The translations under genes and the position numbers were made by a program. Source: Elsinoe ampelina (taxonomy: Eukaryota). Taken from it: DNA of 62,597 nucleotides. Location: contig ML992501.1 in NCBI GenBank assembly GCA_010093995.1, positions 954,945 to 1,017,541 on the forward strand, given 5' to 3'. The number at the start of each line of letters is the position of its first letter. Position 1 is the stretch's first letter. Positions 6,801-60,499 of this stretch are shown in pieces. The notes beneath the pieces were generated by a model. It ran no database searches, had not been told where the DNA came from, and was given only the letters and a program-made list of their open reading frames with translations.

Positions 6801-8480
6801 GCCATCCTTCGTCAGGATGCTTCGATCCCTCGATCCGAAAAGATTGCTTATGTCGACAACATCATTTCTCTCCTCGAAATGAATGAGATCCAAGACGCAA
6901 TCATCTCTTCGCTGGGTGTGGAGCAACGCAAGCGTCTGACCATCGGTGTGGAGCTGGCTGCCAAGCCCCAGCTATTGCTTTTCCTGGATGAGCCAACGTC
7001 AGGTCTCGATTCACAATCAGCATGGTCTATCGTACAGTTCCTCAAGCGTCTGGCTCGCGCCGGACAAGCTATTGTCTGCACAATCCATCAGCCTTCGTCC
7101 CAGCTCATCCAACAATTCGACATGATCCTCGCCCTCAATCCCGGCGGCAACACATTCTACTTCGGTCCAGTCGGTGAGTCCGGCGGCGAAGTCATCAAGT
7201 ACTTCGCCGACCGCGGCGTCCAATGTCCCCCCAACAAGAACGTCGCCGAATTCATCCTCGAGACCGCCGCCAAGAAGCCAAAAGGTAAAGACGGCCGCCG
7301 CATCAACTGGAACGAAGAATGGAAAAACAGCGACCAAGCCGCCGCCGTCCTCGACGAGATCAACGGCCTCAAACGCACCCGCTCCGAAGCCGCCCCCTCC
7401 ACCACCAGATCCGCGCCAGAAACCGAGTTCGCCGCCTCCATCCCCCTCCAAACCGCCGAGCTCACCAAACGTGTCTTCCGCCAATACTGGCGCGATCCAT
7501 CCTACCTCTACGGCAAACTCTTCGTCTCCGTCATCGTCGGAATCTTCAACGGCTTCACCTTCTACGCCCTCGGCTTGTCCATCCAAGACATGCAGAACCG
7601 CATGTTCACCTCCTTCCTCATCATCACCATCCCCCCCACCATCGTCAACGCCGTGGTCCCGAAATTCTACTCCAACATGGCACTCTGGCTGGCGCGCGAA
7701 CACCCCTCGCGCATCTACGGCTGGGTGGCCTTCACCACCGCGCAAGTAGCGGGGGAGATCCCCATCTCCATCGTCGGCGCGGTCCTCTATTGGGCGCTGT
7801 GGTACTGGCCCACCGGCCTCCCCCGCGACTCGGAAACAAGCGGGTACACGTTCCTCATGACCGTCCTGTTCTTCCTTTTCCAGAGCTCCTGGGGCCAGTG
7901 GATATGCGCCTTTGCCCCTTCGTTTACGGTCATCAGCAACGTTCTGCCGTTTTTCTTCGTCATGTTCTCGCTCTTCAACGGGGTTGTGAGGCCGTATGCT
8001 TCGCTGCCTGTCTTTTGGAGGTACTGGATGTACTGGGTCAATCCGTCTACGTACTGGATCGGGGGTGTACTGGCCGCGACGTTGCGGGGGGTGCCGGTCA
8101 GGTGTGCGGAGAATGAAGTCGCGCGCTTCACGGCGCCGCAGGGGCAGACTTGTGGGAGTTATGCTGGGGCTTTTGCGAGGCAGGCTGGAGGTTACTTGCT
8201 TGATGAGGCGGCGACGAGTTGTGAGTACTGTCCGCTCAGCAGTGGGGATCAGTATCTCTCGCAGTTGAATTTGGATAGTGGGCATATGTGGCCGTATTTG
8301 GGGATCTTCTGCATTTTTGTCGTCAGTAACTGGGCATTGGTGTACTTCTTCATCTGGACGGTGAGGATCAAGGGGTGGAGTTTTGGTTTAGGAAAGGTCT
8401 TCGGGAGCTTGGGTAAGGTGGTTGATTGGGTGAAGGGAAAAGTCGGGAAAAGGGACAAGGGGGAGAAGCAAGACGCGTAG
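3831..8480 (+). CDS. Full-size PDR-type ABCG multidrug transporter (NBD-TMD)2, intronless, 1549 aa
   Basis: GRPGSGCST, VSGGERKRVSIAE and CWDNSTRGLD in NBD1; GASGAGKTT, LGVEQRKRLTIGVEL and LDEPTSGLD in NBD2; two hydrophobic multi-TM blocks. Confidence 0.96.
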   Translation: MWQNGVDEGRIQRTQSNLNQWHNISAPLPDNDGLHEQHSPEEMEEVEDSPDRSGTWGERDAGAPNEASAMADFEALRRELSNLSRTRSRPDSLTRQSTRNRMSLRRTKSSHADEEAGQGDGDDARSDDDFSLDNFMREGHFEKRKDGKSAKKVGVLYKNLTVQSVGATAEFVKTLPDAILGTFGPDLCRLISRLIPALKSSKGERRNLINDFSGVIRDGEMMLVLGRPGSGCSTFLKAIANDREAYAAVTGDVSYGGIPAEKQAKMFRGEVNYNPEDDIHFPTLTVFQTFVFALMTKTKKKAAQDIPLIANALMKMFGISHTRNTVVGNEYVRGVSGGERKRVSIAETLASKSTVVCWDNSTRGLDASTALDYAKSLRIMTDISNRTTLVSLYQAGEGIFELMDKVIVIDAGRCVYQGPANQARQYFIDLGFYAPERQTTADFLTAVTDPKERQFRDGHEASTPKTSEELEQAFHRSHFWEQNMQEIQAYEEYLKDTGHADAKEFEGAVQEGKSKTVARKSSYTVSFWRQVLACTQREFWLLFGDKTTLYTKAFIIIANGLIVGSLFYGQPLDTSGAFSRGGSTFFSILFLGWLQLTCLMDAVSGRAVVSRHRDYAFYRPSAVTLARVLADFPIILVQVIVFSVIMYFMNSLDLDVSKFFIYMLFVYCTTICITALYRMFAALSPTIDDAVRFSGIALNLLVIYTGYVIPKTQLLSKYIWFGWLYWISPVSYSFEAVLANEVADRNMTCAPSNLVPQGPGVDPAFQGCAFAGADVNAKYVNGEAYLNSQFDYSRSHLWRNFAVVIAFTLLYLLVTVFAVEAFNFVKGGGGALVFKKTKKAKQAIKEASPADEEKATGDSGDSSSGILATSQDVEKDENDALEKISGSQSVFTWQDVEYTVPYGNGERKLLNKVSGYAKPGVMVALVGASGAGKTTLLNTLAQRQSTGVVSGDMLVDGKPLGKEFQRGTGFCEQMDLHDGTATIREALEFSAILRQDASIPRSEKIAYVDNIISLLEMNEIQDAIISSLGVEQRKRLTIGVELAAKPQLLLFLDEPTSGLDSQSAWSIVQFLKRLARAGQAIVCTIHQPSSQLIQQFDMILALNPGGNTFYFGPVGESGGEVIKYFADRGVQCPPNKNVAEFILETAAKKPKGKDGRRINWNEEWKNSDQAAAVLDEINGLKRTRSEAAPSTTRSAPETEFAASIPLQTAELTKRVFRQYWRDPSYLYGKLFVSVIVGIFNGFTFYALGLSIQDMQNRMFTSFLIITIPPTIVNAVVPKFYSNMALWLAREHPSRIYGWVAFTTAQVAGEIPISIVGAVLYWALWYWPTGLPRDSETSGYTFLMTVLFFLFQSSWGQWICAFAPSFTVISNVLPFFFVMFSLFNGVVRPYASLPVFWRYWMYWVNPSTYWIGGVLAATLRGVPVRCAENEVARFTAPQGQTCGSYAGAFARQAGGYLLDEAATSCEYCPLSSGDQYLSQLNLDSGHMWPYLGIFCIFVVSNWALVYFFIWTVRIKGWSFGLGKVFGSLGKVVDWVKGKVGKRDKGEKQDA

Positions 8481-10268
8481 AAGACCAGACTGATCAAGGT
8501 GCATTGGTATAGCATAGCGATTTGTGAGGCATACTTACATGGTCTCGCTATGGTAGAATGAACCTTCAAACTTCAGGACTGTTAATAGTCCTTACCTGTC
8601 CGCTTCTGTGGTGTTTGCGACAACCTCTCGTCGGCTTTGGTATATGTGTTCCCCCTTATATCTGTTTCGACTCTTGCGATGGAATGTATCTAGATGTTCT
8701 TCGTCGCGTTTGGTCTTCCTGATCCAAGGTTGGCGACTTGTGTCTCCAAGCCATCTGTTCTTTCTCTCGCCGTGAAGTGTCTGTATGGATCCGTCGATGC
8801 ATGCCGGTTACTGTCCGGGTGTATGATACTTGCTGCGTTGGGGCTTACTGATGATTCTGTGGTCATCACCCGCCTCATAGGACGTCTGGAGAAGAGTTTT
8901 TTGATGGTATAACGATGCTTTCCGTCTATTGTCGGTGATGCTGATGTTCTACTGATTAGGATATTGGCGCTGCTGATGCTTGAGCCCGGTATGAGATTGA
9001 CAACGCGTCTCTTGACATTCTCATGCTTGACACCTGTGTTGCGCCCCATGTCCTTTGGCGATGCCCTGTTTCACCAATCTGTTGACGACGCCTTTGTCCC
9101 TTTTCAGATCCAGCAGATGTCATCACCGAAGTACGAAACTGATGGAATTTTGAAGAAGCAGATGACGATAGTCTATCGAGTGTGATCACGCGTTTGTGCG
9201 ACTCTTTGTTTCGTTGTCCAGGAGCTGAAAATGGTGACGTGCTCTTTCTCGTAGGATGTCGAGGTCGACGAGGATGATTGTAACGAGGACCTGGTGAGAT
9301 AGGACCTATTTTGTCGGAGTCTACGGGTCAGTCCCCTATTGACGCGTCGTTGGGATTGGAGTATATATACCTTTGGGTGACTCATACATGACTGTGTTGT
9401 GATCAAGTCCTCATCAACGACATCATGGTGGAGTTGAAACTCTTTGAGAGGCTTCTATGGACTCATTGTCGGATCTTGAAGTCATTTGTATCGATGACCT
9501 CGTCGCCAGAGCTGAACTTGTCGACGCGAAATTTGCGAATATCTCAAAAGATGTAATCGGATTGCCAATGATTTCACGGATCGTGATAAGGGCAGCAGTG
9601 AGATCACAAGATACTGTCAGTGTATTACGTGGACTCTGGTGCTGTATGCTCCGAATGTTCATGCTCTTGATAGTCGCGTGATCCGTCACTGCTCCCTTTT
9701 TGAGAAGGATTTGATTTGTGAAAAGCGCGTCCGTCGAAGATCATGGCTGACGATGATTGTCGTAGCTGGATGAGATGGAAGAAGGGTGAGAAATAGGTGT
9801 CGAATCTGTCGATTGAGGTATACCATCTGCCCTGAGAAAAGATGAAGTAGTTGATGTCAACGAGGAAAAAGTGACGAGTAAATGTAAGTCTGAGCACTAC
9901 GAGCAAGCCGTAGCTCAAGATGCCATGGTCATGCTTGAGTGAACCACAAAAGTTGAAAGCATTGGGTGGGTGTGGCAGCAGCTTCTCGGAGTACCGAGGA
10001 TGACAGAAGAGACACCCGGTAGAAGAGACGCAAGTATCGCATAGACGCGCCGCCCACGCAACAAGAACACAGCTATGCTTGTGCGACCAAGCACTCCCCA
10101 AATAGTCTGTTCTCTCAACCTCGTGCAGTAGGCGCGTGCGTCGTGAGTCAAGAGCCAGTCATCTACCTTACCTCAGGTATACGTGAAGGAATCTCTTTCA
10201 GCTCACTTCTCAAAACAAATATCATATATCATTAAACATGGCTCGTCGTCGTGCTCAACTGAAGATTC

Positions 10269-10411
10269 GGCATCGTGGCGGAGTGGTTGTAAGTACGACC
10301 TGTTCGTTTGATGGCGTTGGAGTACTAATCGTTGTAGAACGCGCTGCCCTGCTATATCGAGATTGCTAGGCAGTACCTTCGGGTGCGCATGTTCGAATCA
10401 TGCCGATGTCG
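10269..10411 (+). tRNA. tRNA-Ser(GCU) with a 49-nt spliceosomal-type intron in the D-loop (10289-10337) and a 13-nt canonical 37/38 intron (10355-10367)
   Basis: Acceptor GGCATCG/CGATGTC plus discriminator G; D stem GCG/CGC; anticodon stem CTGCC/GGCAG with GCT at 10351-10353; variable arm TACC-TTCG-GGTG; T arm GCATG-TTCGAAT-CATGC. Mature length 81 nt. Confidence 0.9.
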
Positions 10412-10414
10412 TCC

Positions 10415-10419
10415 TTTTT
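10415..10419 (+). terminator. Pol III oligo-T terminator of tRNA-Ser(GCU)
   Basis: TTTTT starting 4 nt after the discriminator base. Confidence 0.7.
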
Positions 10420-10843
10420 GCTCCTGATAGCCACTAGGATGAAGAAATGTAGCCGAGGGGATGGATCGGTGATTCAGTCTGCACACTAAGAGAGGGGGTC
10501 AATCTGGCTAGACTCGCCTTTTGCGGGTCACATTTCGACCAACTCTGAAGAGAAATTAAGTGTTAGCACGTGAATGAGAACGAGAGCTTCCTGCAATAGA
10601 GCGATAACAGATGCAGCTGTACACGGATCCACTATCTTGCATCACGCAACTTGAGGGCAACTCGAGCTGTATGATATTTTCTTTCGTGCTGCAAGGGACT
10701 ACAGCACTCGCTGCCAGCACGAGGCTGCATTGCGAGTAGCATGTAGGATGGCCGGTAAAGCTACACTATGAGCAAGCAAAAAGTCAGATGAAGGCATGGT
10801 GAAACTGTCAAAAATGGTTCTTGTCACACACTTACCACCAATC

Positions 10844-10853
10844 AAAAACAAAA
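10844..10853 (-). terminator. Pol III oligo-T terminator of tRNA-Ser(AGA)
   Basis: Minus strand reads TTTTGTTTTT starting 8 nt after the discriminator base. Confidence 0.7.
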
Positions 10854-10860
10854 GGTACGT

Positions 10861-11055
10861 CGACTTCGATGTGATTCGAACACACGCTTTGACGCATCAG
10901 TAAAGGCTCCCAAGAAGATAGACGCATTGATCTCACCTCCCGAAGGAACAAGCTAGCGGTCAATGACCTGGTTCTAGGCTTGCTGATATTTCATTAGTCG
11001 TGCACCCCTGCAGACCAGGGAATACGAACCGCGATAACCACTCCGCCACGAAGTC
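10861..11055 (-). tRNA. tRNA-Ser(AGA) with two spliceosomal-type introns (11029-10983, 47 nt; 10936-10887, 50 nt) and a 17-nt canonical 37/38 intron (10971-10955)
   Basis: Spliced product GACTTCG TG GCG GAGTGGTTAT CGC G CAAGC CT AGA AA GCTTG TTCC TTCG GGAG C GTGTG TTCGAAT CACAT CGAAGTC G (81 nt). Acceptor and anticodon stems pair fully, and the long Ser-type variable arm and G73 are present. Confidence 0.9.
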
Positions 11056-11934
11056 CGGAAGCTGCCGGTGACGAGGTTGTAACAATATATGATGAGCAAT
11101 GTTTGAGGCCTTTGACATGGTCGAGTACGAAGGCCGAGTGCGAATTTCGCTGGACAATGGCTCAAGCTTTGACATGGGTCGCACACACGCTGGAGGAGGA
11201 TTGTGGGAGAATGTAGGCAGACCTCATCAATCTTCAAAACGTTATCGTATTAGTTCTGGCCAAATAAGATCGCGTGGAAGTGGCATCTCTACAGAGATGA
11301 CATGGGGATCCGGTCCGTCAGTAGCACTGTAGAGGGCCATCGAGACCTGCTTTCCACGCCGGAGCAAGAGTAGCCGAGGACGGGTTCGACGATCTCGCTT
11401 GAATGGTGGGTGTGGCTCTTTCCGCGTCAGATGCGCTGTTCAGCTCTGGTGCCAATCAAATTTGATGATTTCGGAACTCATATTGGTACGCGCTGAGAGT
11501 ATAAACCGCTCGATCACGCGCGAAAATTCCCAAGTTGCTGCCGACGTACTGAAAATGATTTAGACCGCATCGTATTTCATCTTGGCTGTGTATGTACAAT
11601 GTGGTCGGTTGGCCCATTGCTCTACGGGCCAAAATACTTTCGTTGTATGCGTATAGCTTGGACGCGAGTTACCAAGCAGCAAGCGGTTGATCCGTCACGA
11701 GAGTGAAGATCTGGAAATGGCTGAGGTGTCGCCAGCCTCCATATGAGTGGAGTGAGTCAATCGGAGTCGTGTTTGCTCTCGACCGATGTCGGCGCGCCGC
11801 GATGTGAGAGAGTCGCGGGGTTAAGCTCTGCTCCAAATTGATCGAATCAACTCAATAGGAGGTACATACTTTCCTGTCTTGCAGGTTGACTATGGTCCTG
11901 GAATATGGCGTTGAACCGGTCAATGTTATCATGC

Positions 11935-12861
11935 TCAGTCTGCGCCGAAATTCCAGTCGTCGAGATCAGCGTCATCATCATCGTCTTCTTCATCTTCTTC
12001 GTCATCCTTGCCCGCGTTTTGAGCTTGAGTATCGCCTACAATCTGACCGGTACCTCCAGTATTGCCAGACACCCCAGTCATCAGTTCATCCTTGATCTGC
12101 CCAGCGTGTTCAGGGAGAATCGTCGAAGAGCCTTTTCTGAGAGCCTCCCTCTTCTCTCTCAGCTTCCGGACTCTCTCTTCCAGCTCATCCATCTCGTCGA
12201 ACTCAGCTTGGAGAGCCTCTTGTGCATCGTCTCGCTCTTCCTCGAGCTCTTGTTCTCGCCGACCCCTCTGTATGCTTTGCTCTTCTCTCGCTTTGGCCGC
12301 AAGCTCTTCCGCAGTCATGGGCGCCGCTGATATTGTCGCGTTGGCATAGACTTGTTGCTGTGAAGATTTGTCGCTCTGCACGGGCTCGTCCAGCATCTTC
12401 TGCAATTCCAGCCATTCCGGATCGTCCTCGATTGCAAAATCTTTCACTTGACGGGCGGTACTTGACTGTGCTTGATCGGCCTTGCCTTGTGACAGTTCCT
12501 GTACCACCTGCGCTTCCGCATCTGGCTCCTCGCTGACCTCGATTCGAGGTATCTGAGCTCTTCTGCCGTCATCGTCATCGTCGTCGCTGTCGCCTCGTGC
12601 TCGCTTTCGTGTGTCGTCCTCTTCATCACTGCCCGCCTTTCGCTTCCTGCTGTTTGCCTGTGTCTTACTAGCTTCCGCCGCACGTAATGCTCGCTTAGCA
12701 TGCTCCGGTGTCTTGAGATGGCTGTTCCACTGTGCTTCCGACTTGATTGCGTGTTCGCAGAGCGTGCATTGTACATTGCCGTTGTCCGTATAGCGTGCGT
12801 AGGGATGAGTGACGCGCCTACTTTGACGGGATGCAGAGAGCAATGCGCGGGCGTCGGTCAT
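11935..12861 (-). CDS. ZNF830/CCDC16-like zinc-finger coiled-coil protein (308 aa from ATG 12861)
   Basis: N-terminal HPYARY..CTLC..W..HL...EH finger, RKRK NLS-like motif, acidic coiled coil, acidic C-terminus ending DDW. Confidence 0.75.
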   Translation of the reverse strand: MTDARALLSASRQSRRVTHPYARYTDNGNVQCTLCEHAIKSEAQWNSHLKTPEHAKRALRAAEASKTQANSRKRKAGSDEEDDTRKRARGDSDDDDDDGRRAQIPRIEVSEEPDAEAQVVQELSQGKADQAQSSTARQVKDFAIEDDPEWLELQKMLDEPVQSDKSSQQQVYANATISAAPMTAEELAAKAREEQSIQRGRREQELEEERDDAQEALQAEFDEMDELEERVRKLREKREALRKGSSTILPEHAGQIKDELMTGVSGNTGGTGQIVGDTQAQNAGKDDEEDEEDDDDDADLDDWNFGAD

Positions 12862-13116
12862 GGTTGTTGTGCTGGAATACTGCAAAGGAGCATAGAGAAA
12901 GAATGTGACAAGCAGTCGAAGATTGTTTGCACCGTTTGCAACCCGTGCTCGAGTGAAAGACGTCTGAGGTGTGTGGAGCCAGGGAAGGTGCGCCGAGGTC
13001 CACACGGATTTGGCGCGGCGGAAAATCCAACGTCGGCTTTTGCTCACCTGCAGTAGTTTCGTGGTCTGGTAGCACAAAGAATCGTGCATCATCCAATAAT
13101 AGCAATTTCTTTGATA

Positions 13117-15082
13117 ATGCGACCCTCTGCTTCATCTCCAGACAATGGAGATGATGATAGCGCCTCCAGTACCGGCAGCGGCGTGAGCATCCGACAGGAC
13201 AGTGAAGGATGGGAAGACCTCGAACCTGATGTAGAGACGATTGAGGTCAAGGACTTCTTCAGCGATGCGATGTTTTCAAGTGCGAAACAGATGCTTGATC
13301 ATTGCAAGAACGCACATGGCTTCGATTTTATCGGCACACAAAGAACTCTCGGTGTGTGCGTCAGTCCTTTGTCCAGCGACGGACCCGCCTTCTAACATAG
13401 CACAACAGGACTTGACTTCCTGGAGAGCATTAAGCTCGTCAACTATCTCCGGAAAGAGGCTCAGGCTGGTCAAATTATCTCGCAAGTCGATTTCAAGGAC
13501 AAGTTCTCAGCCGATGCTTTCCTACAGCCATCACTCGAGAATGACGCCCTCCTTTTCTCTCTGGACGAGGTGCTGGATGCGGAGGACGACCCACAGACCA
13601 ATGGAGATCATCCAGAGGCTACTAACGGTGACCATGAGAGCTCAGCAGAGTTGAAGCAGAGGCTCCAGGACCTCGAGGACCGCTTCGCCGAATACCGACT
13701 TGAAGTGGCAAAAACGCTAGACCAAAGATGGAACGACAGAACAGAAAACATAGCCAGCTCATCGAAGAGCAAAAGCGACGCCGAGATCGACGAAAAGTAT
13801 GACAGGGGTTACTTTGAGACTTACTCTTACAACGGTATGTGCCATGCACTCTGCATCCAGCTCGCTGTCGCCGGTCCCCCTTGTCTCTTGCTCAGCATTG
13901 TGCTCTTCGTGAACACGGTCGGTCGTTCCAAGCGAATGGTCGTATTCCTACAACACGGCGTAAAGCCGCCGTCCCGAAAACCTTTCCTCCTCAACCAGTA
14001 CACCAAGAAATGACTACACCTCTGCCTCGAATCAACGATGAATGGAGCTGACATCGATTCCAGAGATCCATCAGATCATGTTGCAGGACAGTGTTCGCAC
14101 CGATGCGTACCGCGACTTCATCTACGGAAATAAGCATCTCTTCAAAGACAAGGTGGTGCTTGACGTAGGTTGTGGCACCGGTATCCTATCCATGCTCTGT
14201 GCAAAAGCAGGAGCAGCAAAGGTCATTGCCGTCGACAACTCGGATATCCTCAATAAGACCAGATCGATCCTCTATGCGAACAAGCTCGATGGTGTGGTCA
14301 CTTGCGTGAAGGGCAAGATCGAAGAGATCTCTCTGCCCGATGGGATCGAGAAGGTTGATGTGCTGGTGAGTGAATGGATGGGATATTGCCTGCTCTTCGA
14401 AGCAATGCTTGACTCCGTTCTGTATGCCCGAGATCGCTACTTGAAGCCGGGAGGGTTGATGGTGCCCAGCCACTGCACGATGCAAGTGGGGGCGCTCGCT
14501 GATCCGGACTATGTCGAGGACAACTTCTCATTCTGGCAGGACGTATATGGCTTCGACATGACTGCGATGATGGAGAAGATCTATGATGATGTGTTAGTGC
14601 GATCTCCTGCAGCTTCTGCCATTGCCGGTCGCACCAAGGACAGGGAGCCATTCCAGGTCCTCGACCTGCACCGTGTAACAAAGGACCAGCTTGACTTCCA
14701 GACGCCCTTTACGTTAGTTCTAGAGCGCGACGTCGACTCTTTGGATGGCTTCTGTGTGTGGTTCGACACAATCTTCTTGACGAGTCCGGACCAGGAAGTG
14801 CCTCCACAGCTCCGACGTGGTGATGGTTTCGCCACCAAGTCAACAGAAGGTCCAGTCTTCTTCTCAACTGGCCCATTCACGAAGACGACTCATTGGCAGA
14901 CTGGTCTCTGCATGATCGACCCGAAGCAAAGTGGCGGCAATGCTTTGAAAGAAGGCTCTTTGATCGAGGGTACGATTTCTGTGGAGAAGAACAAAGAAGA
15001 GAAGAGGGCGATCAACATTGACTTAAGCTGGAAGGTCGGCCCTGATTCAAAGGCCAAGCGACAGCTCTGGTTCATGCGTTAA
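13117..15082 (+). CDS. RMT3: Type I protein arginine methyltransferase PRMT3/Rmt3-like; introns 13352-13408 and 13835-14063
   Basis: N-terminal HCKNAHGFDF..LDF..IKLVNY region, YSYNEIHQIMLQD across intron 2, VLDVGCGTG, SEWMGY and THW loop. Confidence 0.88.
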
Positions 15083-15349
15083 TGTAATCGGACTTTTCGA
15101 GGAATGGTTGCGGGTTATGAATTGGGACATGAACGGGGTACTTTTGCTGGTCTTGGCAAGGTGATGCTCTGCCGTCTATACCAAATCCACAGAGCTTCAC
15201 TCCAATTCCTCACTTCCCGTCACCTTACCAAATCCTTTTCGCAATCTCCTTTGATTTTACACGCCCCGTAGGCTTGTCAAGAAGCTCTTTCGCTACCTCG
15301 TTGCCTATATACACGCTCACAAAGACTTCACCCGTCCCTCACGAGCACC

Positions 15350-16125
15350 ATGAGCGACCGCAGAAACTCACAATCAGAGAAAAAGAACGAAGACACACCC
15401 TTCTCACCCAGTGAGATAGAGGCCATCATGGCCACGCCCAACAGGGCAAATGCCAGGCTGCTCATTGAGCATGCTCGCAGGGGGGGTTTCTACACCCCTC
15501 CGAGCTTCGATCCTACCGGCGCCCTCTTCACCAACCCTCGCCCATCCCCCCCTACTCCAAACCGCCCTTCCTCCAACGCCCCTTCTTCTCCAACCTCTCC
15601 GACTCCTTCTTCCCCTCCAACCCGCTCCGCCCCTCCGCGACCTCCCGCGCCAACTTCTTCGCCTCCGCCGCCCTCCGCCGCCCTCCGCCGCCTCGCCACC
15701 TCCTGCGCCAGCTGCCGCCTCTCCTCCTGCGCCTATTCAATCCCCTTCTCCTACGCCCCCCTTCACCCCTCCTCCTCCGCCTCCACCTCCTCCTGCGTTT
15801 CTTCCCTCTCCCCCGCCTCCTACGACCCCCGAGGAAGAGCCAGAGGAAGAGCAACGTGGGCGCGGCGCTGGTAGCCGCCCGGCTACACCACCAAGGGTAT
15901 GCTTGACCCAATTGACTTTCTGGTAGTTTCTTTGCTAATCTAACCACCACACAGCGAGCCAGACATTCAGCCAGAGGCAGGCCCCGCGCGTCAGCCGAGC
16001 AGAAGCAGGCAGAGATGAGGAACATCTCGGCGAATCTGGCGAGGAGCTTGGGTCAGGCGCGTGGGAAGTACTACCAGGGGAAGAAAGTCAGTGGGGAGGG
16101 GCAGCAAGAAGACAAGGAATCGTAG
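15350..16125 (+). pseudogene. Proline-rich hypothetical gene with an apparent +1 frameshift near 15662-15691; intron 15897-15954
   Basis: ATG 15350 frame reads sensibly to ~15680. The 15450 frame carries a GTATGC..GCTAAT..CAG intron and an open last exon to TAG 16125. Confidence 0.45.
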
Positions 16126-16759
16126 CATTCAGGAAGGGTGAGGTACTAAGAGATCACTGCAATCTGTATCGTGATCGGAGCTAATTATGATTCAGGCACG
16201 ACGAGCTGGTAGTATCACGCACGAATGAACTACCAGAAACAAGCCATTGAGAGGACGATATCGAGCAAGAAGGCAAGCAGAAGTAACCAGCTGGTAGTAT
16301 CAAACATGGTAGAACGCGATGAAAGACAGGCAAATCGAGCCAACATGGACATGGACAATGACGAGCTGGTAGTGCCTCGCGCAGCGAATGTAGAATATCA
16401 CGCCACGAATGATCACACCAAGATGATCACGATGCATCTGGTAGTACTACTGCTGGACAACAGCGTGGAAAGGTCATAGAAGGGGCACGATCTGGCGATT
16501 CTCGTGGTAATAATGAATGAAACGAACAAAGTGTGTCCTCGAGACGCGTCAAAGCACTCCCAGAAAGAAGCCCCATATGGTCTTTGTGACGTGCCTTGTT
16601 TCCGTGTTGCCCCACCCACCGCTCGAGCATCAATACTTCTCCCCTAAGCTTCCACCACTCACGCGAACCACATCACACCTTTCCACATCACATCACATCA
16701 CATCAATTGCAACTGGCCTGCAATATCTTCCAACTCCTGATTACATTCGTCCCTTCGTC

Positions 16760-18931
16760 ATGGCCTCTCACGGCAAGATCGTGTTCGCTCAATCCCCAGA
16801 AGTCGACCTGATTCTCACCAAGCTCAAGGCTGGTCAGGGTGTCGAGGTCGAGGTCGAGCATAACGGCCGCGTGGAGACAATCGTTCTACAAGACATCAGC
16901 ACTATCGAGATCGTCGACGACGGTGCCACCGGCGATGCTGTGAACAACCTTGATACCATTCGCACCATCCAGAAGATGAGCTTTCTTCCGCGCTCCGTGA
17001 GTTCCACGTCGGAAATTTCTGCCTTCACACTTACTGAGCTTTGGAAGGACTTACCTGCCAACGGCAACATGTCTTCGGCTCCAGAGAACAACCACAGTGG
17101 CGACGGGAACAGCAGCGACAACCCTGTCGGCGCTCGTCCACATGGCAGCAGCGACGACCCCGCCGGCACCACTGGTAGCGACAACCTTGTCACCTATAGT
17201 GGCCACAGCGACTCTCACGCCAACGATGCGACCACCTTTCACGAAGCGGATAGCGACAGCAGAAGCTTCAACGCACGTTTCCGTCCACTCACCCAAGGTG
17301 CAGGTCTCACGACGCTGCCCAACTCAACCGACTCACAGTCAACATCTCGCGCCACTTCACTTCCTGCCAACAACGACACCATGCCTACAGCCACTCACAA
17401 CAACAGCACTACTGCCACTGGTAATAAGCGCGCTCGCTCCGCTGGTGATGCCGGTGATGAGACTTCACCCAAGCGTCAGCGCACCAAGGAGACCGAAGGC
17501 GATGCACTCACGTCCGCTTCCCCCACCAAGCCATACACGCCTCCTCGTAGGCTGAGGACCCGTGCGCCACCCAAGTCAGCCACGGAGCGTGCCCTTGGGT
17601 ACACCAGCAAGAAGTACTCGTCGGAGCAGTCCAGGAGGGACGCCATCGCCATGGAGGAGGCATTGGCCCAGAACATCCCTGGCGTGTCGGGATTCACGCC
17701 GGTCCAGATGGAGGTCGGCTGGGTCGAGACCAAGAGTCCTCAGTACTTCGACAGCGTCGATGCTGCCAGAGCGGCCGAGCGTTCCGCCAGGGCTGCTGCC
17801 GGTGGGGACGCCACCATGGACAACACCGACGAGGGTGAAGACAACACCACCATCACCGCCACCCCCAAGGTCGCCGCAGCCGCCAACGACGACGACACCA
17901 CCACCCCTGGCACCAAGCCCACCTCCTCCGCCCGCCCAAAGCGCACGCTCCGCGGCAGCACCAAGCCCAACGCTCCCGCCACCGCTCCCGCCACCAACCC
18001 CGCCACCCCCAACACCGGCGGCTCCTTCATCACCTTCTCCGCCAGAGACGGCACCACAATCTCCCCGGACAAGCCCAAGTCCGCGTCCGCCAAGCGTCCC
18101 AAGTCGACCGCCACCAAAGCGCCCGGCGGCACCCACACAGTCATGACCAACGACTTGGGCACCACGTTCTCGCGCGCCAGCACGTACAACACCTGGCCCA
18201 ACGCGGAGAAGGAAGCCATCCGCTCGGCCATCTTCGACGAGAAAGTCGCCGCCGGAGCACCTCTCCTCGCGCACCACAACGAGTGGCGCAAGCGTCACGG
18301 CCAGGACGAGGTGCAGATGGTGGCGTTCCGCAGCAAGGTGAGCAAGAGTTTTGGTCCGCAGATCGGGGAGATGAAGCGCACCGGTAATGTGCCGGTCTGT
18401 GTCTCGCGTCCGTACCACTGGCCCAAGAATGGGGTCGAAGCCAAGGCCGTGGCGGCTGAGGTCGAGCGCAGGGAGCAGGCCAAGGAGCCAAAGGAGAGGG
18501 GTGCGGCGTATTTGGCGAAGTTCACGAAGCCGAGGGGTGTGGGGGGTGCTGTGGTTGGGGATGAGGGGGAGGAGGAGGGGGATGACGAGGAGGAAGAAGA
18601 GGTCATGCCGAAGCGCAAGACCCGTGCCGCCATCAAGCAGAACGAGGATGAGCCCGTCAAGCGCACCACTCGCGCCGCCGCCAAGGAGGGGAAGAAGGTC
18701 ACCTTCGCGCCTGCCAAGAAGGGCAAAGGAAAGAGCAAGAAGGCCGTGGCCGAGGAGGAAGAGGACGAGAGGAACAGTGACCGCGTCGATGTGATGCCCG
18801 AGAGCGTCCGCAGGATGTTCGCCGAGCGCGGCATCGGGCCGGCCGAGGAGGAGTTTGATCCTTTCCTCGACGCGGCGGGGCCGAACTGGTCCAACAACAG
18901 GGGTGAGAAGGAGGGTGATGATGAGGAGTAG
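16760..18931 (+). CDS. Hypothetical low-complexity protein (723 aa), T/A/K-rich with acidic C-terminus
   Basis: Long ORF with C/G-biased third positions; start placed at gtcATGG (MASHGK); no family recognised. Confidence 0.75.
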   Translation: MASHGKIVFAQSPEVDLILTKLKAGQGVEVEVEHNGRVETIVLQDISTIEIVDDGATGDAVNNLDTIRTIQKMSFLPRSVSSTSEISAFTLTELWKDLPANGNMSSAPENNHSGDGNSSDNPVGARPHGSSDDPAGTTGSDNLVTYSGHSDSHANDATTFHEADSDSRSFNARFRPLTQGAGLTTLPNSTDSQSTSRATSLPANNDTMPTATHNNSTTATGNKRARSAGDAGDETSPKRQRTKETEGDALTSASPTKPYTPPRRLRTRAPPKSATERALGYTSKKYSSEQSRRDAIAMEEALAQNIPGVSGFTPVQMEVGWVETKSPQYFDSVDAARAAERSARAAAGGDATMDNTDEGEDNTTITATPKVAAAANDDDTTTPGTKPTSSARPKRTLRGSTKPNAPATAPATNPATPNTGGSFITFSARDGTTISPDKPKSASAKRPKSTATKAPGGTHTVMTNDLGTTFSRASTYNTWPNAEKEAIRSAIFDEKVAAGAPLLAHHNEWRKRHGQDEVQMVAFRSKVSKSFGPQIGEMKRTGNVPVCVSRPYHWPKNGVEAKAVAAEVERREQAKEPKERGAAYLAKFTKPRGVGGAVVGDEGEEEGDDEEEEEVMPKRKTRAAIKQNEDEPVKRTTRAAAKEGKKVTFAPAKKGKGKSKKAVAEEEEDERNSDRVDVMPESVRRMFAERGIGPAEEEFDPFLDAAGPNWSNNRGEKEGDDEE

Positions 18932-20347
18932 AGAGGGGTCGAGGCGGGGTGGTGGAGGTTGTGGAGTGGGGGGGTAAGAGTGAAGGAACGGGTTGGTTTC
19001 AAGGGATAGGCATGGCAGATGATGGTCGTCTCTTCCAGGATGGGAGCACGTGACTCCTTTACAGCATAGCGTGGCGCGTGGCATAGCGCTTCTTTCGTCC
19101 TTTGTGGACAGCTACCGCATGGTATAGCTTTTGCTTCTGCTCTATAGCCTCATGATGGGGTTCGATGAAATGCATATTTACGGATAGGAGACGTCTGGTG
19201 CAAACCTTGATGGTGATGTGGTTTTGGAGATGGCAAGTGGTGAGGTGAAGTTGGACGGGCACAAATCGAGGGTGTGATGTGGGGTGGCTGACTGAGCGGT
19301 CCGACTTCAAATCACGATTCGAGGCATGATGGCAATTGAATATTGGATGAGGCACAGTAACAAATTCTGCTTCAAATGTCTTGATCGGGATCATCTGTGA
19401 GTGACAAAAAATATTTGTTTGTGAAGTGATTCATGTATCTGTGTGCCTAAAGTGTTTTGAAAATTCTTAGCAGGAGTGGTTATTTTTGGTACTGCAATTG
19501 TCCTTTGGTCTCACGCATAAGCCGCACCTATGACACCCGGCAAACCTCCCGTGCAAGACAGGAGATGCCATCGGTTTGGGACCATTCGAGGACCAGGATG
19601 CTGATCTCACTCTACCCGTCCACGAGTGCCTCACAGTACTCCTCCTCGACCAGGGCAAAACAGTGGAAGAGCCCAAACCTCAGAGCGGACTCCCACAACC
19701 TCCCTCCTGTCTGTCCTACACCTATCCTTCCCTCCCCAGCCAAAAATGCATCCTCCCTGACCCCGACTCGAACCCCGACCAAAAATGCAAAAAAGGAAGC
19801 ACTGCTTGGACAGTAACCGCCTGAAACTCTTCGGGGCGACGCGGAGTGGTTACCGGGATCTATTTACGCCGCTTACGGTTGGTTTGCTTTTTGTCACGAG
19901 CACACATGTTTTTTGGGGAAGGGGGTTCGTTTAGCCAGACTGATTGACGTTGCTGGTTACTCCTAATCTTCCTTGGAGTGAGGGGAGGGTAGGAAATAAT
20001 ATATACTTACTTACCTATGGGTGGTGTTTGTCACATGTCGCATTCGCGTTCGGCGAGCTGTGCGTGAGAGGGCTGTCACATGTGAAAACGTTGCCTTGCC
20101 TTTGTGGTTTCAACAAATCCTGCATCTTGAGATGTTCTTCTTGCTTACATCCACATCTCATATTAACAGGTTGAAGCCGTGACCATGGAGGCAGCGCACC
20201 CGTGCATTGACGAGGACGAGACCAGTCGGTGAGGATATCCGTTGCGTTCACTGCGATAGCGAATGTCACGCGAGCGATGCAGACTGACCTTGCGCCAGAC
20301 CCAACACTCCCCCTCTCAGCGACTCAAGCACACTCGGCGACGACTCT

Positions 20348-21193
20348 GTGGTAGATGTCGCATCTCCAGTGTCTGTCACCAGCGACGTTTATACAACGCT
20401 CGAGTCTCGCCTTGTCGACTTCATCTCGACTTATCGCTGCACACCAGCGCTCAAGCGCCACCTTCTCAATATCCTCAAGTCCACAATTCGTGCCTACCGA
20501 GATTTCTCTCCTGTCATGTCCACGCCGCCAAAGTCTGCCGGGATACCTTTCGGCATGACCGCCAAAGACATTGCGGCAGTGGACGCACTCAGTCGTTTGA
20601 CGATGACATGCCCAGGCTTCAAGTCGGAGGAGACTGTTGAGTACCTCAATTTGCGTGTGAAAGAGATCGCCCAGGAAGTCATGCATGAAGGTGAATGGAC
20701 CAAGGCCGCAGCAGACACAGTGATCGAGTCATTGTCCACAGTCGCGGAGTGGCTCATTGTGAGTTGGAAGGATCCGGGAAAGAAGAGACCTGGTCCAACG
20801 AGCGAGATCGAGAGGGAAGTCCTGAGGGCGGTCTGTGAGGGCAAGAGGTGGATGGCTGAGGCCAACAATGAAGTCCACAGACCCAATAGGAAGACGGATG
20901 GTCAGGGCGGTGTCCCGGTGGATGTGGCCAAGCTGGACAATATTGCCAAACTTCTGTTGCGTGGCAAACCATATCCAGTCAACAGGTTCATCCTAAGAGG
21001 AAGCAAGGCGCTGGGGAAAGATATGTCAACAAAGTGGAAGATTCCTCGCAAGTTGCTACCGTCCAGGTTCCGCAATACGAATGTCGGCATGCCGAGGGGA
21101 TATACGGGCTGCATCGAGTACGTGAAGCTGGCGGAGAGTATGAGGAGGCGGTTGGTGATCGAGGCAAAGACGGCAGAGGAGGAGGAAGAATGA
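20348..21193 (+). CDS. Hypothetical protein (start uncertain)
   Basis: 281-codon ORF with globular-looking composition; it begins at a GTG and the first in-frame ATG is near 20516. Confidence 0.55.
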   Translation: MVDVASPVSVTSDVYTTLESRLVDFISTYRCTPALKRHLLNILKSTIRAYRDFSPVMSTPPKSAGIPFGMTAKDIAAVDALSRLTMTCPGFKSEETVEYLNLRVKEIAQEVMHEGEWTKAAADTVIESLSTVAEWLIVSWKDPGKKRPGPTSEIEREVLRAVCEGKRWMAEANNEVHRPNRKTDGQGGVPVDVAKLDNIAKLLLRGKPYPVNRFILRGSKALGKDMSTKWKIPRKLLPSRFRNTNVGMPRGYTGCIEYVKLAESMRRRLVIEAKTAEEEEE

Positions 21194-21452
21194 GAAGGAG
21201 GAGTTAAATGATGGAGAAGGGCATGTCCTTGCCGTTGCGATGTTGGGTTAGGCACGGCATGCAATTGGCGGTAAGATCAAGTTGCTTTCCAGTATTATAG
21301 AAATGATATCCTACAGATAGCGGATGGGTATACAGCGCCGTTCATTCGTCATAATGTCGTAGAGTCATTATTCAGGGCCGGTCGTGAGGTTGTAAATGGT
21401 CCGTTCGTGGTTCATCATGAGGTAGACATTCCTGGGAACGGCATCAAGGTAT

Positions 21453-22490
21453 TCAGTCCGAGTCGTACGCTACCAAGGCAGTGACAGGGTGCTTGACATC
21501 TGCGCCGTCCGGGTCACCAGGAATGGCATTAGCAATGGGTACATCTTCGTCCCTTCTTTTCAGTCGCTCGAACGGTTTGCGGTCGGTCGAGAACCTGCTA
21601 GTCCCTTCCACCCTCCAAGGATCCACCGCTGCCCTCGTGCTACTCACAAGCCTCTGCTCTAAACTGGTCTTGCGTTCAGACTGATCTTTTGACGCCTTCT
21701 TCAAGGAGGTCTTGGGCGAGGCAACCTGCTTCCTGGGTTTTGTGGCATCCCTTTCGAAAAAGGGTCTGCTCGCAGCTTCAACTGCACCATCCAATCTAGT
21801 CTGTCCAAAGTCGACCATGCCAGCACGAAGCCGATCTTCCTCATTCTCTGGTACCAGATCTATGCCCAAAGCCAGCTTGTCTTGTATGCCCTCGGCCTTC
21901 TCCCGCTCTCGGACTCGTTCCTTCCGTTCCCTCCTGAACCCCTTACGCACCATGCGATTTGCCTCGTACGGATCAGCCCAGTGCCTCTCCCTATCCTCGA
22001 GCAGCTCTTCGACCCTCTTGCTCGATTCCAGCTTGATACCCTCCTCTTCTTTCCTGCCCTCCAACCCAGCCATGGCATCCTCCCGCCTCCTCGCCCGCTC
22101 TTCCTCGTCCAGAACACCTTCTTCCACTTTCTCGTCACCATAGTCTCTCCTTTTTGCTCCCTCGCTCACCACATACTCTGATGCTTTCGGGTCTGTCCGG
22201 ATCTCGATCTCCCCACCGCAGATGACGTGCTTCATCCGGAAGCTCCATATTGGCGTGCTGTAGTAGTTGCCCACTTTCTTCTTCTCGGCGTTGAAGCGAA
22301 CACCTTGACCTATGATGGTGGGCTTGGGACAGTGCGAGCACCATATGGGGAAGGGCATCTCGAATCGGACGGTCAGGATACCCTCGCTGCGGAGCTTGCG
22401 GGCTCTGGTGCCGAGAGGGTGTGTCTTGTTGAATGTCGGTGGATTGTCGGAGTCGGGCGGGTAATACCTGCCCATATTGAAGCCCTGCAT
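21453..22490 (-). CDS. CCDC130/YJU2B (Saf4/Yju2, CWC16 family) splicing factor, 345 aa
   Basis: MQGFNMGRYYPPD, VRFEMPFPIWCSHC, GVRFNAEKKKVGNY and IEIRTDP motifs. Confidence 0.9.
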   Translation of the reverse strand: MQGFNMGRYYPPDSDNPPTFNKTHPLGTRARKLRSEGILTVRFEMPFPIWCSHCPKPTIIGQGVRFNAEKKKVGNYYSTPIWSFRMKHVICGGEIEIRTDPKASEYVVSEGAKRRDYGDEKVEEGVLDEEERARRREDAMAGLEGRKEEEGIKLESSKRVEELLEDRERHWADPYEANRMVRKGFRRERKERVREREKAEGIQDKLALGIDLVPENEEDRLRAGMVDFGQTRLDGAVEAASRPFFERDATKPRKQVASPKTSLKKASKDQSERKTSLEQRLVSSTRAAVDPWRVEGTSRFSTDRKPFERLKRRDEDVPIANAIPGDPDGADVKHPVTALVAYDSD

Positions 22491-22936
22491 GATGGCTGTC
22501 TGGGTAAGGGAGGATTGTATTGAATGTTGACGACGGAATGGATGGGTGTGAAGATAGCTGGTTTCTGAAGTCCGCAACGCCGCCCAAACGTGCCTTTCGG
22601 CTCTAGGTCACGTGGGAGAAAGCAAAGTCATTCCAGATACCATTAAGCTTCTGAGCAGAACGTGAAAGAAGAGCTATTTCCCGTAATCGTTACCCAATAT
22701 CAAAAATTGCGCTGCGCGTTGAAGGACCGAGACACCTTCGCTATGTACAAAACGACTCTCACTGGCGGACCTAACTTCTCCTCTTCCATCCCACCATGAG
22801 CTTTGCCATGACCATCAACTTTTCAAATTGAACTGTGTTCGGGTAGCCCCCCTCTCCATGACATAGTCGGACTCATATCCTTCACAACTTGTCGACCGTC
22901 CTATCGATATGGCTGGTTTCGCGGCCTCATGCCTGG

Positions 22937-40000: not shown

Positions 40001-40053
40001 AGAATCCTGTCTTCGGCTCTGGGTTGCGCCTGAGATTTGCGAGTGGACCTCAT
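37003..40053 (-). CDS. RAD4: DNA repair protein Rad4/XPC
   Basis: Transglutaminase-like ARLVCSLQP, FWVE and DVTRRYA; BHD motifs FKDHPHYALERHL, VPKNVYGNID and DYADAVTGFQF. Confidence 0.93.
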   Translation of the reverse strand: MRSTRKSQAQPRAEDRILAITSGAGRRSKPEVTSVPDVYRSLLSEASDPSKLDDRPRKRRRVGEGSRAQPVNVDDAEDDIFEEVPIPGNAASNPQTVVDSDHSDHSDFDEWEEVGGATVPASDENGVDDNVGDVTVEVNANRSTPKRTRKKALTTADRTLALSVHKAHVLLLLFHAHVRNRWCSIKQVETSLRRILSAKVVALLNPQSNLVQLRQSESFLEGLKLAMDIWNRKYKVITFGLHRPKWADPDELSQVRERIVEDGESLTKNDFIEATKTLSGSQDLGNQLFCAMLRAVGVEARLVCSLQPLPPSTASQKLITPQKTKPTKPRIHATFEHDDEFSTSDESKAKAAGPRRRLGQPTLGGPVGNYQHMPTPPPKKKVRKLDYPVFWVEALNPAYSKWVAVDPIVTETVSRAHKLEPPASYEGNTMSYVIAFEEDGFAKDVTRRYAKSFNAKTRKQRVESFPDGQRWINKALKPFRRGEITDRDQIEEAELTKKEAQEGLPNNIQDFKDHPHYALERHLKRNEVIWPKREVGKTTAGKASTLEPIYRRSDVQVVQSADKWYRQGREIKAGEQALKHVPARSHRQKSPYSDNEEPEMTALYAHYQTEEYVPPPVVRGKVPKNVYGNIDVYVPTMIPAGASHVRHPMAKKAAQVLSIDYADAVTGFQFKGRHGTAVVQGIITASMHKEAVAATIQGFLEAQQQSEDDARSAECLRLWRRFLLGLQIADRIGLSDIHAANAEQDKDFKQELDDAEDDHDDAVDAGGFFPDSGADNVAQPTGTGAKAHETTTSALLRAPLVDEESAVKSEGTPIIIIDSPHTVHTSEAEPIKPSSRPAPEEQLQTQNVAGLSSRNKIDLGGGFLPEQIHTGGGFIPTAEDQSGGFLPDENDELGGGFLPDPSDAQDSITVKPIQGHAARSDSEHEVGDLFEEQKQDTQPPEAGGSMLSDSLGVDTQITYPTFEEETKTDNDEFDPPDIDMEGEELSHAEGGSGSERASLLSHDPEDEDADPEWLDD

Positions 40054-40344
40054 CGTCGCCAACCTCCAGTCTTGTTCGTGTTCTTCTCAATTTGAGCTTG
40101 CGTTTCATGCCGCAAGCCGTGAATGGCGACGACGAGAGTGACGGTGGTGTCGTCTATAACGCGAGCGTGAGTCCATGCTGTTTATGGGTATGCTGACCGA
40201 ACCAGAGAAGTGGAAGGTCAGAGCGAAGTCGCCGGATTCGAGCCCGTAGAGGATGACGTCAAACATGACTCGCGCATCAGCCGCAAACGCGACCGAACGC
40301 GTCCAAGGCTCAATTTTTTTAGTCGTAGCACACCAAAACTCCAC

Positions 40345-41830
40345 CACCAAATTGCACACCTTTATAACACTACCAATTTTGCTCCAATTGCTTTGATTTT
40401 TTTCCTAATAAACTTGCCATAGCCGAATTATGTTATGCAAATTTATATATACTAACTCTAGAGGCTAGTTAGTAGTATACTAAGAGGCATAAGTAGCCTA
40501 CTCTAATCCGCGCTAGCTGTCACGCCCTAAGAGTAGCACTACTACTACCTAGATGTACTAAATTCCCTATAAGCTAGATATTAGATATAATAAAGATTCC
40601 TAAGTATTCTATATAGTAGATACTTACTAGACTAGCTCGGAGATCTAGATCTAAGCAACCTAGAAGAACCTCTATTATTAACAAATGTCTACTCTGTCGT
40701 ATCTAGCGCTTTGTCAACTATAGCTTTAGTAATGCTAAAAAGACTTACTAGTAGCTAGTAGACTTATTCTATCTAGGTGTTAACTCTTAGACACTATATA
40801 GAGCTATATAAGACTATAGTATCTTTAAATTCAAGGCTAAATAGAAGGGCTAGCTAAAGGCTAAGAATATAGTAGCTTATAAAGCATAGGCTAAAATCTA
40901 CCGCTATAAAGACTTAGACTTCTAGAAAAGTATTAGATTTACTAACGAGTCTTATTTTTACTATAACTTAAGAGCTATTACTATAATCTATCGCCGCCGA
41001 GGCTAGAGGAACTAGCTAAATAAGATCTAGTTTAAAAAGAAGACTACAAAGACAATAGTATATGTCTAGAGGATAGTTAGCTACAGCTTTAAGTTAGAGC
41101 TTATATTCTACTCTAATTTGCTACTACTAAAGACAATTGACAAGTAGAAGGCTATACTAGAGGCCGACCTTCTCGATATTAACCCCTAGCCTTTAGGAGC
41201 TATTCTTAAGACGGAGGAGGCTAAGTTATGCCTATTAAACGACTTATAGCCTAGCTATAAGCACTAGTATAAAGACAAGGCAAATTGCAAATACAACTAC
41301 TATAAGAAGTAACCCTTAGTGCTTACTATCGGTAGCAACCTTAATTAATTTACCTATCTTTATAGCATCTTTATCCCCTATATTAAGAAGTACTAGAACA
41401 ATATATAGTTTAAGAAGAAAGCCTTTATACTAGAAGAAGATAATAATAGCGCTTATAACACTTGATCGACCTATAATCTAGTTAAGCTATATAAAGACTC
41501 TCTACTAGGCTTCTAATATTACGCTAATTGCGCTAAGTTACCTAATATAGCTATTATTAAGACCTACTAGTAGAGGATTAAGTAGCGTGTTAAGCGACGT
41601 ATACTAGTAACTAATAAAGAGCTTAAACGCTTTATTAAAGAAGAATAGGAGGATATACTATAGGATTAGATAGATAAGCTAGTAGAGGAGATACTAGATA
41701 GAGTATACTAGCTATAGCAATGTCAAGGTAAAAGCACTAACTATTAAGTACTTACACCTTTAATTTAATAGTATAACTATTCACTACATTAATTACAGCT
41801 TCATACAATAAGAATTGAGCGTAGCCTATG
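40345..41830 (+). mobile_element. RIP-mutated Tc1/mariner-type DNA transposon relic (ends approximate)
   Basis: AT/TpA-rich island. Relic motifs FTNESYF (FTDESHF, ~40938), LEEDNNSAY (~41430) and LPNIAIIKTY* (SPDxxxIExxW, ~41540). TIRs were not resolved. Confidence 0.75.
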
Positions 41831-60480: not shown

Positions 60481-60499
60481 GTATTTAATAGCTTATAAG

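Follow-up and report, generated by a model that had tools for sequence, protein, structure and literature searches.

Both tRNA genes in a 62.6-kb stretch of the Elsinoe ampelina genome (called the window here, i.e., the whole stretch of DNA that was analyzed) were found to bear inserts, and thus both were interrupted. Apart from the ordinary intron in the anticodon loop, these genes contained short inserts that carried the splice and branch signals of mRNA introns. Judged from these signals, the inserts are quite likely true U2-type spliceosomal introns in working, probably Pol III-transcribed tRNA-Ser genes. In total, at least 24 such inserts were detected in 19 genes (two in the window and 17 in metagenome contigs) at 13 distinct tRNA positions. 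The first-pass annotation of this DNA had proposed a spliceosomal-type intron in the D-loop of a tRNA-Ser(GCU) gene. That proposal is supported by the splice signals, by recurrence (at least 23 further inserts, spread over 18 more Ser tRNA genes and 12 additional positions), by the match to an uninterrupted gene (L112) and, as a weak test, by the finding of no bulge-helix-bulge (BHB) motif.

The tRNA-Ser(GCU) gene (gene 1) was located at 10269–10411 on the forward strand and was recognized by hand reading, ARAGORN and a frame scan for the acceptor and T arms. Its length was 143 nt including two inserts, and the exons summed to 81 nt (20 + 17 + 44). Exon 1 (10269–10288) comprised the 5′ strand of the acceptor stem, U8, G9, the 5′ strand of the D-stem and the D-loop up to position 20a, and it ended in GGTT. 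The following spliceosomal-type intron (10289–10337) was 49 nt long, started with GTAAGT, ended with TAG and separated positions 20a and 21 of the D-loop. Its TACTAAT motif occupied 10323–10329, with the predicted branch A at 10328; donor, branch motif and acceptor were as the earlier annotation had described them. The borders of this insert had a single possible placement with no shifted equivalent, and the longest T run inside it was 3 nt. Exon 2 (10338–10354) began with AACG and contained the end of the D-loop, the 3′ strand of the D-stem, G26, and the 5′ strand and loop of the anticodon stem to position 37, including the anticodon GCT. The 13-nt insert that had also been noticed in the anticodon region was found at 10355–10367, after position 37. 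It was a canonical tRNA intron without GT..AG ends or a CTRAY motif, and its placement was ambiguous by 1 nt (10356–10368 in the ARAGORN version). Exon 3 (10368–10411) included the 3′ strand of the anticodon stem, a long variable arm, the T arm, the 3′ strand of the acceptor stem and the discriminator G. The A box (10276–10286) and the B box (10390–10400) were both uninterrupted, and a T5 run at 10415–10419, 4 nt past the gene end, represented a Pol III-type terminator. An open frame that ran from an ATG at 10239 through exon 1 and the splice junction to a TGA (46 codons) was considered as a protein gene and rejected; the probability that a stretch this long lacks stop codons by chance is ~0.1.

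Standard tools did not recognize the interrupted genes. The raw window yielded zero tRNAs from ARAGORN and zero from Rfam. When introns were permitted, ARAGORN miscalled the gene 1 locus as a tRNA-Asp with a 53-nt intron. After 10289–10337 was cut out by coordinates, it reported tRNA-Ser(gct) with a 13-nt intron in the anticodon loop. The comparison of spliced and unspliced sequence by a tRNA finder, which had been suggested earlier and was run here with ARAGORN, thus gave Ser(gct) for the former and no tRNA or a tRNA-Asp miscall for the latter, and the expected restoration of the Ser D-loop and an 81-nt cloverleaf by GT/AG excision was borne out. Positions 8–43 of gene 1 were identical to those of an uninterrupted tRNA gene in the metagenome contigs (L112). 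After removal of the inserts, both window genes had the long variable arm, 3-bp D stem, G73 and Ser anticodon of a class II tRNA-Ser.

The frame scan of the window returned three matches: gene 1, a second gene and one 391-nt stretch. The last lay at the AT-rich end of the window, displayed no other tRNA feature and was taken as a chance match. The second gene (gene 2), a tRNA-Ser(AGA) gene on the reverse strand at 10861–11055, was 450 bp from gene 1 in convergent orientation; neither this gene nor its two GT..AG inserts had been mentioned in the first-pass annotation. It was 195 nt long with three inserts and 81 nt of exons. The first spliceosomal-type intron (10983–11029, reverse strand; 47 nt) was situated between G26 and position 27, began with GTTCGT, contained CTAAT at 10997–10993 and ended in CAG. 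A canonical tRNA intron of 17 nt (10955–10971, reverse strand) followed position 37. The second spliceosomal-type intron (10887–10936, reverse strand; 50 nt) lay at the border of the variable arm and the T stem, with GTGAGA at its start, CTGAT at 10900–10896 and AAG at its end. Two spliceosomal-type introns plus one endonuclease-type intron were also the most that any Ser tRNA gene studied here carried. Its A box (11048–11038, reverse strand) and T-loop box (B box) were intact, and a T4-G-T5 run (10844–10853, reverse strand), 7 nt past the gene end, represented a Pol III-type terminator. When both GT..AG inserts were removed, ARAGORN reported tRNA-Ser(aga) with 81 bases and a 17-nt intron; with one or none of them removed, the gene was miscalled. 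Positions 8–26 were identical to those of the intact AGA gene downstream in locus L017.

Protein matches assigned the window to a Dothideomycete, one of its proteins being 100% identical over the aligned part to a protein listed under Elsinoe ampelina. The inserts were compared with mRNA introns of the same region. Four RNA-type sequencing runs were compared over window positions 8400–22700, and their content consisted of spliced RNA-like contigs. Joints in these contigs defined neighboring mRNA introns of 50, 53 (or 58), 57 and 58 nt, and one of 229 nt. The RNA-confirmed introns had a GTRNGY-like start, GT..AG ends and CTAAC, CTGAC or CTAAT 6–15 nt before a YAG. The three tRNA inserts of the window (47, 49 and 50 nt), with CTAAT, CTAAT and CTGAT at 8–10 nt from the end, matched this profile. 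The earlier remark that the D-loop insert has the size of the mRNA introns of this genome agreed with the RNA-confirmed neighbors of 50–58 nt, beside the single one of 229 nt. At the three tRNA inserts, the RNA contigs contained no joint, and cover was found in run X1 alone at a depth of ~0.4–1.2.

Metagenome contigs were then scanned for related genes using a pattern built from the uninterrupted part of the variable arm and T arm common to both window genes. The scan was keyed on the 3′ half, so the sequence 5′ of the pattern had no bearing on which loci were found; it reached Ser genes with this variable arm and T arm, and inserts in the 3′ part were undetectable by design. At least 118 loci matched, and full flanks were taken for 80 of them. 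Two loci truncated on the 3′ side were set aside first, and every other locus was aligned, with splicing allowed, against a reference derived from its own 3′ strands. The 117 matches listed contained 113 complete Ser genes (49 GCU, 43 AGA, 20 CGA and 1 UGA); in the other four, the gene was incomplete or the fit was poor. The 300–600-nt flanks of the loci contained only a few further tRNAs.

Among the matches listed, 14 of the 49 Ser(GCU) genes carried 18 non-canonical inserts of 48–67 nt, which is the frequency in this sample and not in fungi at large. In the 81-nt numbering, these inserts were located after positions 8, 9, 10 (three inserts), 11 (four), 13, 14, 15, 17 (two), 20, 28 (two) and 30. 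The one after position 20, in L054, was at exactly the same D-loop site as the insert of gene 1. Two rows were dropped as artefacts: L093, a Ser(CGA) gene whose long canonical intron was listed under the wrong anticodon, and L111, in which the acceptor stem showed a 4-nt irregularity. Five of the GCU genes listed were followed after 7–22 nt by a Ser(AGA) gene, and three of these five tandem Ser(AGA) genes had an insert at position 13 or 14. ARAGORN returned 35 Ser(gct) calls on the loci listed, which equaled the number of GCU genes without such inserts, and it miscalled L001, L006 and L075. The comparative loci were metagenome contigs, several of them perhaps derived from one species or from sister species. 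The inserts therefore do not represent 24 independent events; the four inserts at position 11 (index 11) clearly represent one.

Splice signals were present throughout the collection. All 24 inserts from the window and the matches listed could be placed with GT/GC..AG ends (23 GT and 1 GC), where each insert allowed 1–4 equivalent placements in the scoring. A strict CTRAY motif occurred 7–14 nt before the 3′ end in 22 of them, and the two exceptions had CTAAA and TTAAC. The 3′ ends were CAG, TAG or AAG (AAG in three of 24), and the lengths ranged from 47 to 67 nt. In the window alone, both GT..AG ends and CTRAY were observed in 3/3 inserts. As a control, the 39 canonical 37/38 introns of the same genes showed GT/GC..AG ends in 0/39 and CTRAY in 0/39. 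Random 47–54-mers of the window had GT/GC..AG ends in 0.85% of draws, and such ends together with CTRAY at 4–25 nt from the end in 0.05%. The spread of the inserts over 13 different positions fits a machine that reads sequence signals, rather than an endonuclease that measures structure.

These counts bear directly on the proposal that the inserts belong with the non-canonical tRNA introns of Archaea, Cyanidioschyzon and nucleomorphs, which the tRNA splicing endonuclease cuts at a BHB. Several introns per gene at unusual sites, the D-loop included, have been described in those systems (PMC3978253, PMC4090602, as far as the parts consulted go), and the genes studied here already rely on the endonuclease for their 37/38 intron. 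However, the full motif, with a 4-bp central helix and both flanking helices, was found in 0/21 inserts, a weak test given that the canonical introns also scored 0. The mean pairing score was 6.5 for the inserts vs. 6.4 for random positions, and only 7.2 for the canonical introns. A structure-based mechanism would also leave unexplained the GT/GC..AG ends (24/24), the CTRAY motifs (22/24) and the mRNA-intron length, whereas the canonical introns of the same genes lacked such signals in 39/39 cases. Endonuclease cleavage of this kind is thus an extremely improbable explanation.

Two other classes of intron were rejected. Group I or group II introns would need hundreds of nucleotides for their catalytic fold, vs. 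47–67 nt in the inserts, and Rfam found no family in the window. Introner-like elements occur as multi-copy families with sequence similarity, and the Dothideomycetes, the fungal class of the window, are known for rapid gain of spliceosomal introns. The inserts here shared the fungal class but not the similarity: in a BLAST comparison of 21 inserts with each other, similarity was restricted to the index-11 orthologous group, and against the 62.6-kb window, self-sites aside, there was one 15-nt match (E = 0.002). In this comparison with each other and with the window, the inserts shared no sequence outside that group and so do not form a transposon family; on this basis, an origin as introner-like or transposon-derived introns was discarded.

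The exons and inserts evolved in different ways. The exons matched the reference at 81/81 positions in every insert-bearing gene of the window and the matches listed, which showed, at the level of sequence, that they are under purifying selection. In the four index-11 orthologues, the exons were identical; the insert accumulated substitutions and indels and yet kept GTAYGT, CTAAT and AG, and its 3′ end switched from TAG to CAG. Among loci with homologous flanks, an insert was found at index 11 in L017 and L108, at index 14 in L075, and none in L044. The upstream flank of L044 was 80–86% identical to those of L017, L108 and L075, and its downstream flank was 97% identical to that of L017. Similarly, L027 had an insert at index 13 and the GCU gene of L002 had none, with flanks 81–84% identical. 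The junctions between presence and absence at these orthologous loci were exact. Exact presence or absence, conserved exons and drift outside the splice signals together are the behavior of real introns, as read from these alignments. In L002, the position-13 insert was absent from the upstream GCU gene and present in the downstream AGA gene; in L027, both tandem genes had an insert at position 13, and these two inserts shared their first eight letters. This pattern hints at transfer between tandem paralogues.

The same observations were weighed against the idea that the interrupted genes are dead pseudogene copies whose inserts are never removed, with intact genes elsewhere supplying the tRNA. 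In its favor, 35 of the 49 GCU genes listed had no such insert, and another part of the genome may contain a Ser(GCU) or Ser(AGA) gene with no interruption, which would make the window copies dispensable. However, dead copies would not be expected to keep exons intact at 81/81 positions in all 19 insert-bearing genes, nor orthologous exons identical while the insert and flanks diverged to ~84–86% identity. The terminators were also retained, and random insertions would not bear splice signals in 24 of 24 cases. We therefore regard the pseudogene explanation as very unlikely, and the reading as spliceosomal introns of working genes is preferred.

The polymerase that transcribes these genes was considered separately. 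Neither window gene had an insert in its A or B box, and each was followed by a T run. Among the matches listed, 10 of 13 insert-bearing GCU genes had T4 or longer within 30 nt downstream; in the three without a near T4 run, a second tRNA gene followed and a T5–T8 run appeared only after it. Tandem genes with the terminator after the second one are known from the Pol III dimeric tRNA genes of S. pombe and S. cerevisiae. Because the boxes and T runs were intact in the window genes and the layout was that of Pol III dimeric tRNA genes, Pol III transcription of the insert-bearing genes is favored with some confidence on these sequence features. T4 or longer runs were found in 0/21 inserts, or 1/24 when the tandem AGA genes were counted. 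As a test of Pol III transcription, this avoidance has no power, since the candidate mRNA introns of the window were also nearly free of T4 runs (1/31).

An alternative is that the inserts are indeed spliceosomal introns but lie in a Pol II host or non-coding transcript, from which RNase P and RNase Z free the tRNA after splicing. The spliceosome is normally assembled in a Pol II-coupled manner, which counts against splicing of a Pol III transcript. The A box (positions 8–19) was split by 17 of the 21 metagenome inserts among the matches listed, and this should weaken TFIIIC-directed initiation. TATA-like motifs preceded both window genes and 6 of the 14 insert-bearing GCU genes listed, and thin RNA-contig cover from run X1 extended across the intergenic region containing both window genes. 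However, such motifs were equally common upstream of GCU genes that had no insert (16 of 32 unique leaders). The T-run terminators directly after the genes or the tandem pairs, the 7–22-nt dicistronic spacing typical of Pol III tRNA dimers and the intact A and B boxes of both window genes point away from Pol II, as do the B boxes, which were intact everywhere but were a search condition. Pol II transcription is therefore an unlikely explanation, although less so than BHB cleavage or pseudogene copies. Where the A box is split, the alternatives are promoter tolerance, reliance on upstream elements or an upstream partner, or Pol II.

From the anatomy, signals and recurrence of the inserts, the selection on the exons and the exact presence or absence, we infer the following course of transcription, splicing, and intron gain and loss under the preferred reading of spliceosomal introns in Pol III-transcribed genes. 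The gene would be read, most likely by RNA polymerase III, through its A and B boxes and T-run terminator. The ~50-nt insert would be seen by intron definition, with U1 on GUAAGU, the branch-point protein and U2 on UACUAAU (branch A at 10328 in gene 1), and UAG as the 3′ site. It would be released as a lariat, and the exon join GGUU|AACG would rebuild the D-loop. The tRNA body would fold only afterwards, and removal of the 13-nt or 17-nt intron by the SEN endonuclease and tRNA ligase would follow. The ends would then be trimmed, CCA added and the tRNA charged by SerRS through the long variable arm and G73. In the predicted fold of the precursor, the acceptor, variable and T arms could form with the insert in place and the D arm could not. 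An insert in the D arm would block folding of the body, so a ruler-type SEN would act only after the spliceosome. At least for D-arm inserts, the spliceosome is thus predicted to act before the endonuclease. In the Ser tRNA genes of this fungal group, such introns would have been gained and lost repeatedly, and spread between tandem paralogues by gene conversion may occur.

The closest parallel is provided by the mRNA-type introns in the U6 snRNA genes of some fungi, Schizosaccharomyces pombe among them (Tani and Ohshima, 1989, 1991; Canzler et al., 2016; PMC5855946). According to the parts of this literature consulted, these are also short GT..AG introns with a branch site in the gene of a small structured Pol III non-coding RNA; they are multiple, lineage-specific and varied in position, and their sequence is otherwise not conserved. 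As far as that source goes (PMC5855946), the fungal U6 introns provide a precedent for spliceosomal action on a Pol III transcript. The tRNA host here differs from U6 in having no known contact with the spliceosomal active site, so the argument of reverse splicing by proximity is not transferable from U6. It differs also by a second, endonuclease-type intron, which places two splicing systems on one precursor of ~150–200 nt.

Spliceosomal introns have further been described in ascomycete rDNA (Bhattacharya et al., 2000) and in the U1, U2 and U5 snRNA genes of Rhodotorula hasegawae (Takahashi et al., 1993, 1996; PMC5855946). They resemble the present inserts in residing in fungal non-mRNA genes, including non-Pol II rRNA within Ascomycota. 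However, they belong to another class of host RNA and another polymerase, and none concerns tRNA in the portions of these sources that were available. A 2018 review stated that the determinants of spliceosomal insertions into non-coding RNAs are unclear, and tRNA was absent from its list in the sections consulted (PMC5855946).

Eukaryotic tRNA introns were located at N37/N38 in a 2023 review, which, in the part consulted, has them removed by SEN/TSEN and tRNA ligase (PMC10275265). A 2025 paper, similarly consulted in part, described the three nuclear intron types as completely unrelated and assigned the spliceosomal ones to Pol II transcripts, mRNAs among them (PMC12530127). Canonical N37/N38 introns were present in both window genes (13 and 17 nt) and in 32 of the 49 GCU genes listed. 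In contrast, the GT..AG inserts were found at 13 other positions, carried splice and branch signals, and measured 47–67 nt vs. mostly 10–25 nt. The tRNA genes of Archaea, Cyanidioschyzon merolae and nucleomorphs, as presented in the accessible parts of two sources (PMC3978253, PMC4090602), share several features with those studied here: more than one intron per gene, sites in the D-loop, anticodon stem and variable arm, and escape from standard finders. However, their introns are defined by a BHB and cut by the endonuclease, whereas those here had spliceosome signals and no BHB was found, the latter being a weak test. A search of the open-access full-text literature found no tRNA gene reported to contain a spliceosomal intron; this agreed with the first-pass annotation, which knew of none.

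Taken at the level of sequence evidence, it is somewhat probable that an ascomycete lineage including this Elsinoe-type Dothideomycete routinely splices Pol III pre-tRNAs by the spliceosome, and that the introns were repeatedly gained, lost or moved at no fewer than 13 positions. ARAGORN and Rfam missed or miscalled every such gene, so the annotation of Ser(GCU) and Ser(AGA) genes in fungal genomes is probably incomplete, and a new, spliceosome-dependent class of tRNA intron would account for the failure of tRNA finders on these Ser tRNA genes. Two unrelated splicing machineries would have to work in sequence on a single very small RNA. Either Pol III promoters would tolerate an intron in the A box, or these tRNAs would have changed polymerase. 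If the inserts are spliced as predicted, the exact presence or absence at orthologous loci would make these tRNA genes a clean natural system for the study of recent intron gain and loss, and the spliceosome would process tRNA precursors in a whole fungal group.

On the forward strand of the window, a reading frame that starts at ATG 10239 crosses exon 1 of the tRNA-Ser(GCU) gene (10269–10411); within 10239–10423, when the 49-nt insert (10289–10337) is removed, it runs on through the remaining tRNA to a TGA. At 46 codons, the length of this frame is about what would be expected by chance. On the reverse strand, just beyond the terminator (10844–10853) of the tRNA-Ser(AGA) gene (10861–11055), a 70-nt segment at 10766–10835 carries the intron signals GTAAGT, CTGAC and TAG in that order, and it contains T5 runs.

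Farther along the window, two runs of spliced, RNA-like contigs differed at one forward-strand intron (16137–16195). Run X1, from the same strain, omitted 16141–16193 (53 nt), with GT and AG ends once the cut was shifted two places to the right, and run X3, from a relative of 95–99% identity, omitted 16137–16194 (58 nt), with the same ends after a shift of one place to the right. The 5′ splice site either differed between X1 and X3 or was used alternatively. The G+C content fell sharply to 28–38% at 40001–42000 and from about 50600 to 62597, while the rest of the window had 50–57%. Repeat-induced point mutation in filamentous ascomycetes leaves AT-rich blocks of this type.

The 60 nt preceding the Ser(GCU) genes in the metagenome loci, and preceding both window genes, were surveyed for upstream motifs. 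Among the matches listed, TATA-like motifs were present in 22 of the 46 unique leaders of GCU genes, compared with 4 of 54 for other Ser genes. A CATCAATCA-like motif located ~20–30 nt upstream was shared by several loci.

The gene in metagenome locus L074 had two spliceosomal-type inserts: the first, after exon position 10, had GC and AG ends (GCAGGT, then CACTAAT, then CAG), which would assign it to the GC-AG class, a rare type of spliceosomal intron; the second, after position 17, had GT and AG ends. Of the 24 such inserts, three in the window and 21 in the metagenome matches listed, only that after position 13 in the downstream gene of locus L002 had a T4 run inside it, which may be a weak internal terminator if Pol III transcribes the unit.

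In five metagenome loci (L017, L044, L002, L027, and L075), tRNA-Ser(AGA) was located directly downstream of tRNA-Ser(GCU) in gene orientation, at a spacing of 7–22 nt. The spacers contained no T run, and a run of T5–T8 followed only the second gene. The AGA exons were identical at 81 of 81 positions across all five loci. These tandem pairs resemble dicistronic tRNA units.
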